Positions 3,937 to 60,840 of a stretch of DNA of 64,000 nucleotides are shown here, piece after piece. Below the pieces are notes generated by a model. It was not told the origin of the DNA, did no database searches, and was given only the letters and a program-made list of their open reading frames with translations. Position 1 is the first letter of the stretch; each line of letters starts with the position of its first letter. Position numbers and translations under genes: made by a program. Source of the stretch: an archaeon (GTDB taxonomy: Archaea; Nanobdellota; Nanobdellia; Pacearchaeales; GW2011-AR1); assembly GCA_027343665.1 (NCBI GenBank), contig DAHWKL010000001.1:46770-110769 (forward strand), read 5' to 3'.

Positions 3937-4656
3937 TTATTTCATCTCAGAACGATATGCATTGATTAATGCTTGTAAAACGGGATTCATCATTTCGTGA
4001 TGGTCCAGAGTATAGATTTTATTAATATTCTCTATGAAAGCTCTGGCATATTTTTTGGCAGAATCCCTCCATTCACCACTGGATAAAAGAAGCTGGATTT
4101 TTTGTTCTGATTCTGGTCTTAGAACAACATCTGCTAGTGACTTTTCGCTCGAACGTTCAATTATGCTTTTATAGTTACGCATTCCTCCTACAAATAACCC
4201 TCCTGAAGTTATCCAAGGGACATAATGAACCTCATTTACGCTGAAAATTTTAGGAGAGTAATCCATGTTGTTCTCATGCACATAAGCTTTGTCTAAAAAA
4301 TGAGATGGAATCCAAAATTTTTCGCTAAGTTTTTCCCAATCAAGCGAAATTCCAAATTGATATCCCTCTCTCAAGGAATATTCTTCCTTCAAACTCTCTC
4401 CTATCTCCTCGGCTAAACTTAAGATTTCCCATTCTGCTCTGGCAATGATTGCTTGATCTACATATTTGTAATAATCAAATTGTGTTTTTTCTGCTCCCAA
4501 ATAATAGGGAAAAAGTTTACGATAAAGATCCATGTGCCCTTCATCTTGGGTATCCCCCTCATCTACAAATCCTTTCATAAAGTTCAGGAGTCCTTTTGGT
4601 CTCTTCCCGCTCGCTTTTTCTATTTCTTTCTTGTAATCAATAATCCTTTTTCCCAT
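3937..4656 (-). CDS. Hypothetical protein embedded in the glycolysis cluster
   Basis: 239-aa ORF with no motif I recognise. It is co-directional with its neighbours and has coding-like composition. Confidence 0.55.
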   Translation of the reverse strand: MGKRIIDYKKEIEKASGKRPKGLLNFMKGFVDEGDTQDEGHMDLYRKLFPYYLGAEKTQFDYYKYVDQAIIARAEWEILSLAEEIGESLKEEYSLREGYQFGISLDWEKLSEKFWIPSHFLDKAYVHENNMDYSPKIFSVNEVHYVPWITSGGLFVGGMRNYKSIIERSSEKSLADVVLRPESEQKIQLLLSSGEWRDSAKKYARAFIENINKIYTLDHHEMMNPVLQALINAYRSEMK

Positions 4657-8433: not shown

Positions 8434-9344
8434 TTTTTAAGATTTCTTCTTAGAAGCTTGTTTTTGGCACCACGCGATCTTATAACGGACTCACTTTCTT
8501 CAAGACCCAATTTAAGACTTTCATCAATTGATTTTCCTATTATCTGGCCTGCTACAAAGCCTGAAGCAAAAGCATCTCCTGCACCTGTCCTTTCAACGAC
8601 TTTTATCTTATGAGGAGTTATCGAATAGATTTTTTTACCGTCATAAGCAAGAGTTTCCTTATCTTTATTCGTAACAATCACAATTTTTGGACCAAGTTCT
8701 TTTAAGCCCCTGAGAATATCTCCTTCTTCTACAAGCAGGCGTGCTTCCTCATGGTTAAGAATAAAAACATCGCAAATCTTAAGCAATGGCCTGATATTTT
8801 GAGTTTTTATTTGGTATTCGGTTGTGTTGAATGCAATTTTTGTCCCATTTTTGTGCATTTTCATTGCGAGCTTTTCCTGTGTCCTGAAGCTTTCATCAAG
8901 CATAGTTGAAAGATAAATCCACTTTGACTGAATTTTTTTCGTGTCAAGTTCTGAGAATCTGAGAAAATCGTTCGCCCCAGAATATTTCAGGATTGTCCTG
9001 TCGTTACCTTTGCTGTCCAGGATTATCGAATACCCCCCATTAACCGAATTGTTTCTGTCTATGCTCCCAAGAAATCCAACTTTTTCTTTTTTCAAAAGAT
9101 CTAAAATCTCTTTCCCCCCAAAACCCGAGTCAAGTTTTCCTATATAGCCTGTTTTGAAGCCAAGCCTGGCAAAAGCTACAGCAGTATTTGTTCCGCCCCC
9201 ACCAATGCTGAATTTGATTTCCTTAAGAAGAATCTTGCTCCCGATTGGATATCCAACATATTTTCGTTCCTCTTTCAAGTCGTGTATATCTGTCTCCGCA
9301 AAAACGTCAACAGTTGCAGAACCGAAAGTTATTATATCGAACAT
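8430..9344 (-). CDS. PfkB/ribokinase-family sugar kinase (possible ATP-phosphofructokinase)
   Basis: 304 aa with GGGGTNTA and the TGAGDAFASGF anion-hole motif. Confidence 0.8.
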   Translation of the reverse strand: MFDIITFGSATVDVFAETDIHDLKEERKYVGYPIGSKILLKEIKFSIGGGGTNTAVAFARLGFKTGYIGKLDSGFGGKEILDLLKKEKVGFLGSIDRNNSVNGGYSIILDSKGNDRTILKYSGANDFLRFSELDTKKIQSKWIYLSTMLDESFRTQEKLAMKMHKNGTKIAFNTTEYQIKTQNIRPLLKICDVFILNHEEARLLVEEGDILRGLKELGPKIVIVTNKDKETLAYDGKKIYSITPHKIKVVERTGAGDAFASGFVAGQIIGKSIDESLKLGLEESESVIRSRGAKNKLLRRNLKK

Positions 9345-13787: not shown

Positions 13788-13907
13788 TTTAACCTCTTTT
13801 ACGGCTATATGAAACAATTGCCTTTTAAAAATCTTATGAAATATAAATTTTGGAAAGCAAGATAAGAAATCGCCAAAATTTAAAAACAGCCCCGGGGTTC
13901 TTAGAAC

Positions 13908-46282: not shown

Positions 46283-46822
46283 ATGATAATAACAGAAGAT
46301 TTCGCACGTAAGGCAATATTAGAAGTAGCTCCACTTGTCGAAGATATTGGTAAGCTTAAGACAGAATTGGATAATTATGAAATCCATGTAAAAAATATAC
46401 CCTCACAAGCAAGTTATCTCCCCCCATTTAAACTGTTCAGTTTTAATAATGCATTAAGCGGGAACAAAGTTTATCTTAAGAGTGTAATAAGTCACGAACT
46501 GTTTCACAATGCCCAATTTTCCACTATTAAAGATTTGTGGAAGAGACACTTAAATATTAACCAAATCTCCTCAAAACAGCTCGAGAATAGGTCTTCTCTC
46601 ACAAAATTAATTGAAGGAGATGCCACATTTGTAGAGATGGAAGTAGAAAAAGTGCTTCAAAATAATATATTGGCCCGCCAGTTTGATAGATTAAAGTTCC
46701 CTAAATATTACAAGTCTTGGGAAAATATTCTTCGAAAAAAATTTAGTGGGAAAAGGAAAGATATAAACGAACTTTATACCGCACCAATCGAAGAATTAAA
46801 TAAAATATTTAAATCAGACTAA
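46283..46822 (+). CDS. HExxH putative Zn metallopeptidase (paralog of 41166-41891)
   Basis: 179 aa with ISHELFHNAQFSTI and KLIEGDATFVE. Confidence 0.55.
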   Translation: MIITEDFARKAILEVAPLVEDIGKLKTELDNYEIHVKNIPSQASYLPPFKLFSFNNALSGNKVYLKSVISHELFHNAQFSTIKDLWKRHLNINQISSKQLENRSSLTKLIEGDATFVEMEVEKVLQNNILARQFDRLKFPKYYKSWENILRKKFSGKRKDINELYTAPIEELNKIFKSD

Positions 46823-56205: not shown

Positions 56206-56364
56206 ATAATTGTCCCGCTAACACTAATCTTAATCCGTTGATTGCTACGAAATTGATTTCTTCACTAAAGAGAATTAATCCCAAAAAAACTCACTTATTA
56301 ATTTAATAAATTTGCAAAATCTTGTACTCAATTTTTAGAGTAATTTGCGCCTTAACCTATTTAA

Positions 56365-56397
56365 GCGGAGCATCCAGGCAAAGCCTGATGCGAAGCA
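56365..56397 (+). repeat. Hairpin repeat family 1, copy A
   Basis: GCGGAGCATCCAGGCAAAGCCTGATGCGAAGCA. It has a GC clamp, a 3x3 purine internal loop, and a 9-bp stem with one unpaired base in the 5' arm. Confidence 0.75.
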
Positions 56398-56482
56398 GTT
56401 AGAATTCTTTTAAGTCCTGCCTTCCACACAATCGTCCGCAAAATTTATATATGAACTGTTTTTAATTTTCTTAGGTGAAAAA

Positions 56483-57136: not shown

Positions 57137-57168
57137 GACGAGAGAAGAGGGGAGGATATCTAATTTCT

Positions 57169-58008
57169 CTACAAATCCTCCAAAGGACTCTTTGTGTTGA
57201 TTAAATTCGGGGAAGCGATATGCGTGTAAATCAAGGTCGTTTCAGGGGACTTGTGACCTAAGAGCGCCTGGACATTTGTGACATCATACCCGTTTTCTAT
57301 TAAATGAGTCGCAAAACTATGCCTTAAAGTGTGCGGATGAATCTTCCTTTTTATCCCGCAAGACTTTGCCGATTTATCGATTATTTTTTGGAGAGTCCTT
57401 ATTGAATATTTTCTTTCGCGATTGCTTTTGAATAGATAATCCGCCTCTGAGAGTTTTTCATCCTTGATTACTTTGTTTATTGCAGGAATCAGATTGTTAG
57501 ACAAGGTGATCAACCTATCCTTTCCACCCTTTCCGTTTCTGACAAATCCGAAATTTTTGTCCAGATTCAAGTCTTTGACTTTCATGTTTATCAGTTCAGA
57601 GACTCTCAAACCTGAAGAATACATAAAACAAACCATCAGCTGATGCTTGAAATTTTTAATCGAGTCTATCAATTTTTTGACTTCATCCTTGGATAAAACT
57701 TCAGGAAGCCTTACAGGGGTCTTTGAATATCTTATGTCAAGCCACATCTTTTTGTCCAGGACTTGAGTAAAAAGAAATCTGATGGCCATATGATAAGTGT
57801 TCAGAGAGTTCCCGGACAAATCTTTCTCAGACAGGTGTTCGAGAAAAAGCCGGACATCTTTTTTTGAGATCTTATCAAGAGTCTTGGGGGAATATTCCAG
57901 AAATCGATTGATGCAGTATAAGTAGGTTTTAGTCGTCCGCGGACTCAACCTCCTTCTTCTGCATTCCTTCTCAACAGATCTCTCGATGTTCACAGGAACA
58001 TAAGACAT
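57169..58008 (-). CDS. Tyrosine recombinase, Xer/phage-integrase family (SAM-like N-domain plus catalytic domain)
   Basis: 279 aa with GLRVSEL (Arg I), HPHTLRHSFATHL (H-x-x-R), LLGH and LIYTHI (catalytic Tyr). There is no IntI-specific insertion between them. Confidence 0.9.
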   Translation of the reverse strand: MSYVPVNIERSVEKECRRRRLSPRTTKTYLYCINRFLEYSPKTLDKISKKDVRLFLEHLSEKDLSGNSLNTYHMAIRFLFTQVLDKKMWLDIRYSKTPVRLPEVLSKDEVKKLIDSIKNFKHQLMVCFMYSSGLRVSELINMKVKDLNLDKNFGFVRNGKGGKDRLITLSNNLIPAINKVIKDEKLSEADYLFKSNRERKYSIRTLQKIIDKSAKSCGIKRKIHPHTLRHSFATHLIENGYDVTNVQALLGHKSPETTLIYTHIASPNLINTKSPLEDL

Positions 58009-58048
58009 GAATAATCAAAGGAGGGGATATATAAAAATTTTTCGAATC

Positions 58049-58083
58049 GTTTTCTGAATTCCGGACTTTTAACGCGGGAAAAC
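58049..58083 (+). repeat. Hairpin repeat family 2 (TTTTCCGG type), copy F
   Basis: GTTTTC...TTCCGGACTT...GAAAAC. It shares the 10-mer TTCCGGACTT with 63353-63362. Confidence 0.5.
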
Positions 58084-58144
58084 CTAAAATTCACCGGAGT
58101 TCGTTAAAAGTCTGTTAGTTGTAATTTCGCACCCAAAAAGTAAA

Positions 58145-58381
58145 ATGGTAAATAAAGTTTATATTGAAGACGCAGAAGATTTAATGAGAGAAAGCAAAAC
58201 TTATAGAAAGATACTTGAGCATAGAAGAAAATGCTCAAAATGGGGAAAAGAGTTTTGCTTAGAATGTTTTGGTGGAGGACTAACTTTATTTACAAAGAAT
58301 TTAAGTGAAGAATTATATTTTAAAGAAAAGGAGGGTGCGAAACTTGGCTCTAACGAGCCACCTGCTACGCAGGACAACTAA
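58145..58381 (+). CDS. Small hypothetical protein (CxxxxxxxCxxC)
   Basis: 78-aa ORF. It is AT-rich apart from its last roughly 50 nt. It may be a spurious read-through into spacer sequence. Confidence 0.3.
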   Translation: MVNKVYIEDAEDLMRESKTYRKILEHRRKCSKWGKEFCLECFGGGLTLFTKNLSEELYFKEKEGAKLGSNEPPATQDN

Positions 58382-58397
58382 TAGGAATTAAATGAAA

Positions 58398-58412
58398 TAA
58401 ATTTTGGCGCGC
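58398..58412. repeat. Left arm of the perfect 15-nt inverted repeat bracketing the panE-like gene
   Basis: TAAATTTTGGCGCGC. Its reverse complement occurs at 59342-59356. Confidence 0.9.
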
Positions 58413-58458
58413 TCAAATAACAAAGCTTTTTAATTAGAATGATTTTTGATATTATAAT

Positions 58459-59340
58459 ATGGATATTTTAATTGTTGGTGCGGGATCAATAGGAGTTTAT
58501 CTAGGGACTTTGCTCCATAGCAAAGGACATAATGTTTTTTTGCTTGGAAGAAAGAAATTGAAGAAATTGCATGAAACAATTCTTATTGGGGAACAAATTT
58601 ATGAAATTCCAAAGAGAATTTATGCCTTCCCAAAAAATAAAACTTATGATTTTGTTTTTATCACATCAAAACTCTACGATTTTGAAAACAATTTGAAGAA
58701 AATAAATGATAATCAGATAAAAACAAAACATCTGGTGAGCATTCAGAATGGAATTGTTGAAAATGAATTATATGAAAAATACACTAAAAAGTTTTCTTTC
58801 TCATCAATATCCGTTTTTGAAGGATTTAGAATTGTAGAAAACCAGCTTATTGTAAATCAATCAAAATCAGGATGGAAAACAGACAATTCAAAAACAGGGA
58901 TTGAGACTTCAAAGGTTTTACAAGATGCAGGAATAAATTGTACAACAGAAGAAAACCTAGATTCAATAAAAGCAGAAAAAACAATAATGAATTGTTGTGC
59001 TAATATTTTATCCGCAATTAAGAAAAAAACATTTTTTGAATTATATAAAAACCCAACAACAAAAGATATAATGGACAATCTTTTCAATGAATCATATGAT
59101 ATTCTGAATCAAGAATACAAATTAAAACCTAAGGAAGAGTTAAGAAAACTTTTTTACCAAATAATACAGCCAATGAAACATTATTCCTCAACATATCAGG
59201 ATGCAATTTCTGGCAGAAAAACAGAAGTTCAATTTCTAAATGGATTGATAATAAAACTAGCAAAAAAACATAAACTCCAGGCACCAACAAATCAGAAATT
59301 ATTAGATGAATTCTTTAGTAAATATCCAAAATCAAAATAA
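58459..59340 (+). CDS. Ketopantoate reductase (PanE/ApbA)-family oxidoreductase
   Basis: 293 aa with MDILIVGAGSIGVYLG (Rossmann fold) and SSTYQDAISGRKTEVQFLNG (family C-terminal signature S-x-x-QD...G-x-x-TE...NG). Confidence 0.75.
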   Translation: MDILIVGAGSIGVYLGTLLHSKGHNVFLLGRKKLKKLHETILIGEQIYEIPKRIYAFPKNKTYDFVFITSKLYDFENNLKKINDNQIKTKHLVSIQNGIVENELYEKYTKKFSFSSISVFEGFRIVENQLIVNQSKSGWKTDNSKTGIETSKVLQDAGINCTTEENLDSIKAEKTIMNCCANILSAIKKKTFFELYKNPTTKDIMDNLFNESYDILNQEYKLKPKEELRKLFYQIIQPMKHYSSTYQDAISGRKTEVQFLNGLIIKLAKKHKLQAPTNQKLLDEFFSKYPKSK

Positions 59341-59341
59341 C

Positions 59342-59356
59342 GCGCGCCAAAATTTA
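59342..59356. repeat. Right arm of the perfect 15-nt inverted repeat bracketing the panE-like gene
   Basis: GCGCGCCAAAATTTA, starting 2 nt after the ORF stop codon. Confidence 0.9.
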
Positions 59357-59362
59357 CTCTGC

Positions 59363-59384
59363 GGTTTTTCCTTCGGAAAAATCC
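59363..59384 (+). repeat. Hairpin repeat family 2, copy B
   Basis: GGTTTTTCC-ttc-GGAAAAATCC forms a 9-bp stem. CTTCGCTCAC follows at 59409-59418. Confidence 0.55.
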
Positions 59385-59480
59385 TCGGGGACGTCTTGCA
59401 GACTTTCGCTTCGCTCACCCTCATTTAACAGCGATTATATAAAATTACCCTGTAACTTCATATAACAGATCCCCGCAACC

Positions 59481-59508
59481 TTTTTATATGAACCCTCTTT
59501 CATATGTT
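59481..59508 (+). promoter_or_regulatory. Conserved 28-nt TATA + inverted-repeat block upstream of the ferredoxin-like gene
   Basis: TTTTTATATGAACCCTCTTTCATATGTT. The inverted repeat is ATATGAA-N6-TTCATAT at 59486-59505. The block is 25/28 identical to 60803-60830. Confidence 0.6.
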
Positions 59509-59530
59509 CGGGAGAATCATATAACTGAAC

Positions 59531-59794: not shown

Positions 59795-59953
59795 CGCCCA
59801 GGGATTTGACTGAAAAGCTCCGAAACGTACTCGCGTCATGTTTCTACGCCAGGAAATAATTATTATCGTCAGATTATGTCCACAGATTAATCAATTTTGC
59901 AAAAGTTAATAATCAACTCCGATGGTTTTTATGACATTAACTATTTTTAACCG

Positions 59954-59986
59954 GCGGAGAAATCAGGCAAAGCTGATTTCGGAGCA
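59954..59986 (+). repeat. Hairpin repeat family 1, copy C
   Basis: GCGGAGAAATCAGGCAAAGCTGATTTCGGAGCA. It has the same architecture as copy A, with a compensatory stem change. Confidence 0.75.
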
Positions 59987-60701: not shown

Positions 60702-60802
60702 GCTCTAAATTCTTATATGGGAGTCTATTTAAGAATTTCCGTACTCCAATGGGATACTAATAAAAAGACTCTGGGAGAACTAATTACCCCTTCATCAAAA
60801 CA

Positions 60803-60830
60803 TTTTTATATGAACACCTTTTCATATGTT
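60803..60830 (+). promoter_or_regulatory. Conserved 28-nt TATA + inverted-repeat block upstream of sufB
   Basis: TTTTTATATGAACACCTTTTCATATGTT. The inverted repeat is at 60808-60827. The block ends 10 nt before the sufB ATG at 60841. Confidence 0.6.
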
Positions 60831-60840
60831 TCAGATTAAC

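Follow-up and report, generated by a model that had tools for sequence, protein, structure and literature searches.

In a 64,000-nt stretch of DNA from an archaeon of the Pacearchaeales (lineage GW2011-AR1; assembly GCA_027343665.1, contig DAHWKL010000001.1, forward-strand positions 46,770 to 110,769; hereafter the window), two small gene cassettes lie next to each other beside the gene for an XerA-type tyrosine recombinase. One carries a PanE/ApbA-like reductase gene and the other a short open reading frame (ORF), ORF78. We consider it likely that both are integrated at a conserved attachment site adjoining the recombinase gene of this DPANN (Diapherotrites, Parvarchaeota, Aenigmarchaeota, Nanoarchaeota, and Nanohaloarchaeota) archaeon. 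The PanE-like gene is bracketed by a perfect 15-nt inverted repeat, which a sequence-only reading of the window had taken for a hairpin whose loop was invaded by the gene. Comparison with relatives suggests instead that the two arms are the innermost, ORF-proximal block of a subterminal inverted repeat that moves with the cassette. Positions below are window coordinates (Table 1), and L001 to L046 denote the fetched comparison contigs, mostly from metagenomes.

Empty and filled states of the site beside the recombinase gene

Clustering of exact recombinase sequences led to a sister strain from another sample (L027), whose protein is 98% identical. L027 matches the window at 94 to 98% through the recombinase and the genes to the left of it, and then jumps from 58117 to 59435 (blastn and junction alignment). 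The breakpoint falls between G58114 and T58115, directly 3′ of a hairpin and ∼105 nt from the recombinase gene. With a bar marking the breakpoint, the sister strain reads ...GACTTTTAAC-N29-GTTAAAAGTCTG|TTATATAAAATTACC..., and the window reads ...GTTAAAAGTCTG|TTAGTTGTAATTT...(ORF78)(PanE)...ATTTAACAGCGA|TTATATAAAATTACC.... The G+C content of the insert (30.1%) matches that of cassette arrays in relatives (30 to 31%), unlike the window mean of 36.9%. A second, independent pair consists of L029, which is empty, and L034, which is filled with a cassette encoding a CntK_N domain. Their XerA proteins are identical and the insertion occupies the same G|TTA point; the right junction of L034 reads GTTTAAC AAGGA|TTAATCGCC... 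and then continues as the L029 sequence. In both pairs, G|TTA lies 105 to 140 nt from the recombinase start.

The site itself recurs beside xerA as ATTCCAGACTTTTAAC-N29-AAGTTCGTTAAAAGTCTG, or as ...ATAAAGTCTG in more distant lineages. Sequence identity ends exactly past GTCTG|TT(A) in L027 to L035, even between contigs with identical XerA, and an end of the form ...AAAGTCTG|TT is also found in the more distant L036 to L045. In IMG/VR, the left half of the site gave only chance matches, all within coding sequence. We rejected a tRNA or other RNA gene as the integration target, there being none near the locus. Among the 19 xerA contigs (L027 to L045), 15 stop 60 to 640 nt beyond the attachment site, L031 exactly at ...GTCTGTTA; such systematic breaks suggest that the content of the site varies within populations. 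A unit of 225 nt without a gene lies ∼140 to 355 nt from the start of xerA in L041 and L043, running from TTAGCCAAACAAT... to ...GACTAAC ACCGA. At least its first 55 nt are then repeated in tandem at the attachment site, and both contigs break off within this second copy. On the other side of xerA, L027 has an extra 2-hydroxyacid dehydrogenase gene (314 amino acids [aa]; L027 positions 1114 to 2201) between the recombinase and peroxiredoxin genes, where the window has a 32-nt gap (57137 to 57168). This is a second strain-level difference in gene content flanking xerA.

Table 1. Features of the cassette locus, in window coordinates
Feature	Position	Strand	Remarks
XerA-type tyrosine recombinase gene, 279 aa	57169-58008	-	Pfam Phage_integrase and SAM_4; NCBIfam NF040815
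Attachment-site hairpin	58062-58114	+	12-bp stem CGGACTTTTAAC / GTTAAAAGTCTG, 29-nt loop; conserved beside xerA in L027-L035
Two-cassette insert, 1,320 nt	58115-59434	+	Absent from sister strain (blastn, junction alignment); shared TTA makes 58118-59437 equivalent
ORF78 cassette	58115-58387	+	ORF 58145-58381
ORF78 core arms	58115-58122 and 58374-58381	+	TTAGTTGT and ACAACTAA; spacer TAGGAA at 58382-58387
ORF78 bracket arms	58125-58134 and 58333-58342	+	TTTCGCACCC and GGGTGCGAAA; cognate complementarity 13/12
PanE cassette, ∼1 kb	58388-59434	+	Context identity begins G|TTAAAT
PanE 5′ core arm	58388-58395	+	TTAAATGA, complementary to TCATTTAA at 59421-59428; cassette start T58388
Left 15-nt arm	58398-58412	+	TAAATTTTGGCGCGC; direct reading, repeat finding, string search
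Left AAATAAC heptamer	58415-58421	+	Direct reading
BRE/TATA-like putative promoter	58422-58437	+	AAAGCTTTTTAATTAG; 22-37 nt before ATG; leaderless mRNA inferred
PanE/ApbA-family 2-dehydropantoate 2-reductase-like gene, 293 aa	58459-59340	+	Cassette cargo; Pfam, TIGR00745
Right AAATAAC heptamer	59335-59341	+	Includes PanE TAA stop
Right 15-nt arm	59342-59356	+	GCGCGCCAAAATTTA, exact reverse complement of TAAATTTTGGCGCGC; begins one base past PanE stop codon
PanE structured spacer module	59357-59420	+	Between right arm and core; small hairpins GGTTTTTCC-TTCG-GGAAAAATCC and GTCT-TGC-AGAC
PanE 3′ core arm and 6-nt spacer	59421-59434	+	TCATTTAA and CAGCGA; collapsed site, R″ ATTTAAC plus 5 nt, without hairpin
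Native right half of attachment site	59435-59469	+	TTATATAAAAT ... ATATAACAGA, into Fer2 promoter; contiguous with GTCTG in L027

Joining the 3′ end of each cassette to its own 5′ end in silico yields a perfect 8-6-8 palindromic core: TCATTTAA-CAGCGA-TTAAATGA for PanE, ACAACTAA-TAGGAA-TTAGTTGT for ORF78, and TCGTTTAA-CAAGGA-TTAAACGA for CntK_N. Cassette starts share the pattern TTRNNY-[G/T]NAAT and are complementary, at G|TT, to the R″ box at the cassette's own 3′ end, e.g., TTAAAT/ATTTAAC in PanE, TTATAT/ATATAAC in a serpin cassette (L005), TTAGGC/GCCTAAC in L007, and TTATGT/ACATAAC in L003, as well as in ORF78 (TTAGTTGT/ACAACTAA) and CntK_N (TTAAACGA/TCGTTTAA). Collapsed junctions, i.e., R″ plus 5 nt followed directly by TTR..., characterize the xerA-linked site as well as copies fixed in chromosomes (twice in the window, twice in L009, and once in L034). 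From lineage to lineage, the spacer module between the right arm and the PanE core varies by compensatory changes (TTTTTCC/GGAAAAA versus TTTGC/GCAAA and GTCT/AGAC versus GGCT/AGCC), and analogous modules precede R″ in other cassettes. ORF listing and Pfam searches found no recombinase within 58115 to 59434 and, as the sequence-only reading had it, no transposase inside the element.

The recombinase gene, which had been placed 400 nt to the left, lies 390 nt from the left arm. Its product scored 233 bits against NF040815 (recomb_XerA_Arch), passing the cutoff of 220, and stayed below the cutoffs of the IntI models TIGR02249 (196 bits; cutoff, 265) and NF011946 (126 bits; cutoff, 435). The best-matching solved structures are XerA proteins from Thermoplasma and Pyrococcus (5hxy, 151.6 bits, and 4a8e, 147.8 bits). 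In an alignment to VchIntIA, residues 13 to 181 of the query match 10 to 181 and residues 202 to 277 match 243 to 318, with ∼40 residues missing; the IntI-specific additional domain is thus absent, with ∼20 residues where IntI has ∼62. Homologues with 60 to 98% identity are abundant, nearly all of 274 to 291 aa, and the named ones come from Nano-, Pace-, and Woesearchaeota. The XerA-type protein is very probably involved in the movement of the cassettes and is probably the integrase of the system.

The PanE ORF has both the N- and the C-terminal PanE/ApbA domains (Pfam) and scored 158.5 bits against TIGR00745 (cutoff, 141.35). Its G+C content (27.6%; 20.4% at third codon positions) is the lowest among the 71 ORFs of the window (z = −3.0). 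The AT-rich interior described before thus persisted when the contrast was recomputed over whole genes, although the neighboring genes have 39 to 44% G+C and not the 47 to 53% given for them. As suspected, PanE is foreign and compositionally distinct. The AT-rich leader noted upstream of the gene contains a conserved element resembling a transcription factor B recognition element (BRE) and TATA box, AAAGCTTTTTAATTAG, which may act as the PanE promoter; the element recurs in cassette and noncassette PanE loci (L011 and, in part, L006). As for ORF78, its first 53 codons (58142 to 58304) match positions 2875 to 3037 of L046 at 94% nucleotide identity, where they belong to a 68-aa gene; the copy in the window is truncated and reads on into cassette sequence. 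L046 (10.9 kb, 26.6% G+C) consists of tightly packed small ORFs, including YopX and a 217-aa integrase, and is probably a DPANN virus or plasmid.

Homologues of PanE, graded in similarity, all come from DPANN archaea. Proteins with 81 to 86% identity occur in five independent contexts (L003/L004, L005, L007 [= L015], L008, and L009) with flanks common to all, and the neighbors upstream of PanE are a two-gene unit in L003, a serpin gene in L005, a 3-kb unit in L007, and a reverse-oriented gene in L008. More distant PanE genes (72 to 77% identity; L006/L016, L011, and L012) lack the arms but share the promoter-like AAAGCTTTTTAATTAG. Contigs L001 and L002, retrieved by exact protein match, are identical to the window and were not counted as independent evidence. 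L001, an ENA contig with an identical PanE, has an inverted chimeric end: its positions 1 to 341 are the reverse complement of 57944 to 58284, joined to 58185 onwards, most likely an assembly or amplification chimera. L007 (= L015; CAZKIP010000028.1; 4.2 kb), which holds the PanE cassette and two attC-type sites, is assigned to a metagenome-assembled genome labeled Methanosarcinales, whereas the other relatives are DPANN archaea; the label points to misbinning or, alternatively, to a cassette transferred between phyla.

The inverted repeat around the PanE-like gene

Direct reading, repeat finding, and string search reproduced every coordinate of the 15-nt inverted repeat, of the inner AAATAAC pair, and of the sole ORF between the arms. 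By composition, the repeat alone is not improbable: a perfect 15-nt inverted repeat within 1.5 kb occurred one or more times in 27% of windows simulated with a first-order Markov model (mean, 0.52), and the real window holds exactly one. It is nevertheless not a product of chance, because relatives keep both arms. In four PanE lineages whose ORFs are 80 to 88% identical (63 to 76% at third codon positions), both arms and TTAAATGAAA are 100% identical. The arms are invariant in the window, L003, L004, L005, L007, and L008, and the left one has decayed in L009. A fortuitous repeat around an ordinary, vertically inherited gene of low G+C content can therefore practically be dismissed despite the simulated frequency, since the arms are exact in four diverged lineages and differing neighborhoods and the gene is both absent from the sister strain and a compositional outlier.

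Because the same arms accompany PanE in differing neighborhoods, they belong to the mobile unit. The proposal of a cassette-type insertion into a hairpin therefore stands in its first half, the cassette, and falls in its second, the hairpin as target: context identity starts at G|TTAAAT, 10 nt to the left of the left arm. Neither 185,579 species genomes nor IMG/VR nor any fetched locus contained the empty hairpin predicted from a 920-nt deletion (AAATTTTGGCGCGC-N0-30-GCGCGCCAAAATTT), and the true empty site is GTCTG|TTATAT beside the recombinase gene. Other genes flanked by the same repeat, for which a search had been suggested, did not turn up either; among 45 fetched loci, the arm sequence occurs solely with PanE. 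The statement that the element lacks terminal inverted repeats is turned around, as the arms are part of its own subterminal inverted repeats.

The heptamers had been interpreted as a target duplication, which is unlikely. AAATAAC is present in 7 of 7 positions in the window, L007, and L008 and in 6 of 7 in L003, L004, and L005, where the left copy reads AAATAAG. Sequence resembling the left copy also lies upstream of the promoter in noncassette PanE genes (GAATAAGAAAG in L006 and AAAAAACAAAG in L011), so that it is probably native to the gene. In an alternative history, a palindromic cassette without a gene came first and later took up PanE and its promoter between its arms, at the tip of its long hairpin, the heptamers representing junction microhomology or a duplication and the arms a footprint maintained later. 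Homology to the noncassette PanE genes of L011 and L006 runs from about AAC|AAAGC to the stop codon, so that its limits lie just a few bases from where the arms end on the inside. The serpin cassette of L005 likewise has a 7-nt direct repeat (CCCACCC) inside its innermost arms (null probability of at least 7 nt, 0.0077 per cassette), yet five of the seven cassette types have none, and removal of the ascertainment case leaves a weak one in six. The ORF78 arms enclose only a truncated fragment of a mobile-element gene, and the 225-nt gene-less unit of L041/L043 has a short hairpin at the place of the would-be cargo. However, the empty PanE hairpin was missing from all collections searched, and the strong conservation of the arms implies a present function and not history alone. 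On balance we regard such a capture as unlikely.

The reading of the arms as cassette ends draws on the other cassettes, five of six unrelated ones showing complementary ends that bracket the ORF. Complementarity was scored as the best number of matches in a 15-nt window and the longest perfect run. Cognate 5′/3′ ends scored 15/15 in PanE and serpin, 14/14 in L007, and 13/12 in ORF78, against at most 13/9 for noncognate combinations. The serpin bracket of L005 pairs GGGGTTGTCGTCGCC with GGCGACGACAACCCC and has two further blocks, and the L007 cassette has three blocks. The CntK_N bracket of L034 comprises perfect 15-nt and 14-nt pairs, the inner of which starts one base past the stop codon (stop, C, and arm, as in PanE), and the reverse-oriented gene of L008 is bracketed by TAGGGCAGGTGTC and GATACCTGCCCTA. 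Folded as DNA, circle junctions form a single long hairpin that extends from the stop codon to the promoter, and cognate ends are 13 to 30 kcal/mol more stable than noncognate ones. This comparison uses energy differences, since counts of outer pairs are noisy and weak AT-rich pairings inflate the noncognate values.

A regulatory role of the arms would explain their symmetry differently, as a consequence of divergent orientation. The arms would then be two outward-facing BRE/TATA-like promoters or insulator/terminators, which shield the gene from read-through or transcribe the flanking recombination sites. GCGCCAAAATTTA resembles the host promoter consensus (family D1, CCGCAAAATTTATATA), the same 10-mer forms an inverted pair at 13844 to 13882 that fits two divergent promoters, and the arms are invariant rather than covarying. 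On the other hand, the bracket arms of other cassettes are unrelated to these, are often G+C rich, and do not resemble promoters (GGGGTTGTCGTCGCC, AAGAGTCGGTAACC, ATTCTCGGGGGCT, and TTTCGCACCC), yet each pairs with its own partner, and the two or three nested complementary blocks of several cassettes describe a stem and not a pair of promoters. We hold this explanation to be very improbable. The pair at 13844 to 13882 (TAAATTTTGG-N19-CCAAAATTTA) matches the hypothetical empty hairpin in the outer 10 nt and in spacing. It was rejected as an intact copy of that hairpin: its halves fit divergent BRE/TATA promoters of genes starting at 13817 (−) and 13908 (+), and the similarity appears to reflect the host promoter consensus.

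Several points weigh against the interpretation of the locus as a pair of cassettes integrated by the neighboring enzyme. PanE is never accompanied by an intact cognate attC, even within the arrays described below. The catalytic role of the XerA-type protein is putative, being based on adjacency and conservation of the site. A covariance model of attC found the xerA-adjacent sites in the right orientation with weak scores only (16 to 21 bits; E, 0.06 to 1), and the chromosomal site could be the dif of the organism rather than a dedicated attI. With regard to the arms, the two-gene cassette of L003 (one of the six cassette types) has just a split 6+6 match that is not significant, and the PanE arms are invariant, without compensatory substitutions, and may thus have a sequence-specific role, e.g., protein binding. 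They also resemble the host BRE/TATA consensus (CCGCAAAATTTATATA at 56436, with the look-alike at 13844 to 13882). The sample is, moreover, small and drawn from metagenome contigs.

Likeness to integrons and to elements that use Xer recombinases

Relatives of the PanE cassette are found in arrays (L003, L005, L007, and L008) whose units are separated by hairpin sites of 84 to 131 nt with the pattern RYYYAAC-AG-(stem)...CCAAAT...AACTTC-(stem)-CGAT-G|TTRRRY. The consensus fold of six such sites from these four contigs is a 22-bp stem with a conserved 2-nt GA bulge, in which 12 pairs show compensatory changes. A covariance model (R1) built from the six sites detected two further ones. It found no attC-type site in the window, where R″ plus 5 nt remains at 58374 to 58387 and 59423 to 59434, and none in the other DPANN PanE loci (L009 and L011 to L026), in which PanE is either native or fixed without recognizable sites. 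In L003 (3728 to 3899) and L005 (2853 to 3017), the PanE site (ATTTAAC AGCGATTAAGAG...) breaks off after ∼50 nt, and a complete site of a different type (R″ AATGAAC) comes next; in L008 the 3′ half of the PanE site does not pair. Downstream of the PanE cassette, L003 also carries two MazE/PemK-type toxin-antitoxin pairs (3996 to 4594 and 8681 to 9267), around which no modeled attC-type sites were detected. Toxin-antitoxin pairs are typical cargo of sedentary cassette arrays.

The locus shares many traits with integrons: a tyrosine recombinase gene with an adjacent attachment site, cargo ORFs that point away from it, a crossover at G|TT, and first bases of the cassette that are complementary to an RYYYAAC-type box at its own 3′ end. 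The related arrays have bulged, imperfectly palindromic attC hairpins with compensatory changes, and the cargo comprises single genes, toxin-antitoxin pairs, and gene-less units. Empty and filled states occur at an attI-like point, although the name attI depends on the enzyme, and the empty strain resembles an In0 element. Integron cassettes are mostly promoterless and expressed from the platform promoter Pc, whereas those described here appear to carry promoters of their own. The complementarity of the cassette ends reaches the ORF, far beyond the 6- to 7-nt R box, an extension that to our knowledge has not been described for integron cassettes. The junctions at the xerA-linked site differ as well, being collapsed (R″ plus 5 nt|TTR...) and without an attC hairpin, while the attachment site is itself a hairpin. 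Archaeal integrons, including those of Nanoarchaeota, are defined by an IntI with the additional domain (PMC9668308). Because the recombinase of the window lacks the IntI-specific domain, scoring as XerA, the locus is integron-like or IMEX-like and not a canonical integron.

IMEX (integrative mobile elements exploiting Xer), such as CTX-phi, TLC-phi, and the gonococcal island, are likewise cargo that brings no recombinase of its own and integrates where a host Xer-family enzyme acts. The mapping of a single crossover, with no more than 2 to 3 nt of identity, recalls XerC-only integration of CTX-phi, and the geometry of the circle-junction cores, two inverted arms flanking a 6-nt spacer, is Xer-like. 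In contrast to IMEX, the units are single-gene cassettes and not phages or islands, and the xerA-linked site is only a candidate dif; furthermore, the core arms are cassette specific in 5 of 8 positions, and related arrays use long hairpin sites. A site that adjoins the recombinase gene is also a feature of XerS/difSL. A dif site for the resolution of chromosome dimers occurs once per chromosome, in the terminus region. The characterized archaeal dif is a plain 11-6-11 site that is not adjacent to xerA (PMC2958812). The circle junctions of the cassettes are perfect 8-6-8 palindromes, and the chromosomal site has a 12-bp stem, a 29-nt loop, G|TT, and a variable right side. The pdif modules of Acinetobacter are likewise small gene modules, with inverted sequences on either side, that Xer recombinases are thought to move, but the repeats flanking those are conserved Xer sites, whereas each cassette described here has bracket repeats of its own, internal to the recombination sites.

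Transposons with terminal inverted repeats, miniature inverted-repeat transposable elements, and insertion sequences that target hairpins or repetitive extragenic palindromes (IS200/IS605 and IS1111/IS110) resemble the insert in being short units with inverted repeats near their ends and in involving hairpins. Unlike those, it has no transposase (specifically, no TnpA(Y1) or DEDD transposase gene by Pfam) and no target duplication outside the repeats; a single specific site is common to unrelated cargo, and the arms come with the element rather than from the target. An identification as a transposon with terminal inverted repeats or as a miniature element was rejected on the same grounds, as the only direct repeat outside the arms or the cassette ends is the 3-nt TTA and the insertion is site specific. 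Neither an xerA-linked cassette platform in DPANN archaea nor complementarity of cassette ends as far as the ORF turned up in the literature searched, a negative that does not establish absence.

These features would fit a cycle in which the non-coding part of an excised circle is one interrupted palindrome centered on the 8-6-8 core. Integration would open the circle at the center of the palindrome and leave its halves on opposite sides of the gene, so that PanE would sit in an apparent hairpin loop as the result of a hairpin cut open and not of a loop invaded. The XerA-type enzyme may catalyze a single crossover at N|TT in the manner of integrons or IMEX. In the excised and possibly single-stranded circle, the arms could zip the non-coding part into a hairpin that presents or stabilizes the recombination site; once a cassette is fixed in the chromosome, they would be free to decay, as in L009. 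The excised form would be expected to have a junction of the type ...TCATTTAACAGCGA|TTA..., namely ...CTCATTTAACAGCGA|TTAGTTGTAATTTCG... for a circle of both cassettes, ...CTCATTTAACAGCGA|TTAAATGAAATAAATTTTGG... for PanE only, and ...GACAACTAATAGGAA|TTAGTTGTAAT... for ORF78 only.

It is quite possible, though short of probable, that the locus exemplifies a widespread gene-capture platform of DPANN archaea, i.e., a conserved XerA-type recombinase that exchanges single-gene palindromic circles at an adjacent hairpin site, as an analogue of integrons or a proto-integron without the IntI-specific domain. Integron integrases are relatives of Xer recombinases. If real, such a platform could account for the lack of an IntI in most archaeal attC arrays and would link the biology of Xer and IMEX to the origin of integrons. 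The questions touched are thus this origin, the formation of cassettes, and the enzyme that serves archaeal attC arrays lacking IntI. Natural strain pairs with and without an insert display the presumed capture of cassettes at single-base resolution beside an XerA-type enzyme without the domain thought necessary for attC recombination. The architecture, in which the complementarity of the cassette ends extends to the ORF, had gone unremarked. Should the assignment of the enzyme hold, this would be a simpler, possibly ancestral gene-cassette system and a route of gene exchange among small DPANN genomes; the material exchanged in the window is a reductase of the coenzyme A pathway type and a fragment of a virus- or plasmid-like gene.

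Repeated motifs near the cassette locus

Two further repeats were found around the insert. A 44-nt promoter-region motif (CCGCAAAATTTATATATGAAC..., family D1) occurs at 56436 to 56479, 59473 to 59516, and 60795 to 60838, upstream of the peroxiredoxin, 2Fe-2S ferredoxin, and SufB genes, and resembles a regulon signal shared by redox and Fe-S genes. A repeat of ∼100 nt (families D4 and D5; 71 to 73% identity) lies at 56301 to 56397, upstream of the peroxiredoxin promoter, and at 59886 to 59986, downstream of Fer2. It includes a small hairpin, which reads CATCCAGG-CAAAG-CCTGATG in one copy versus AAATCAG-GCAAAG-CTGATTT in the other.

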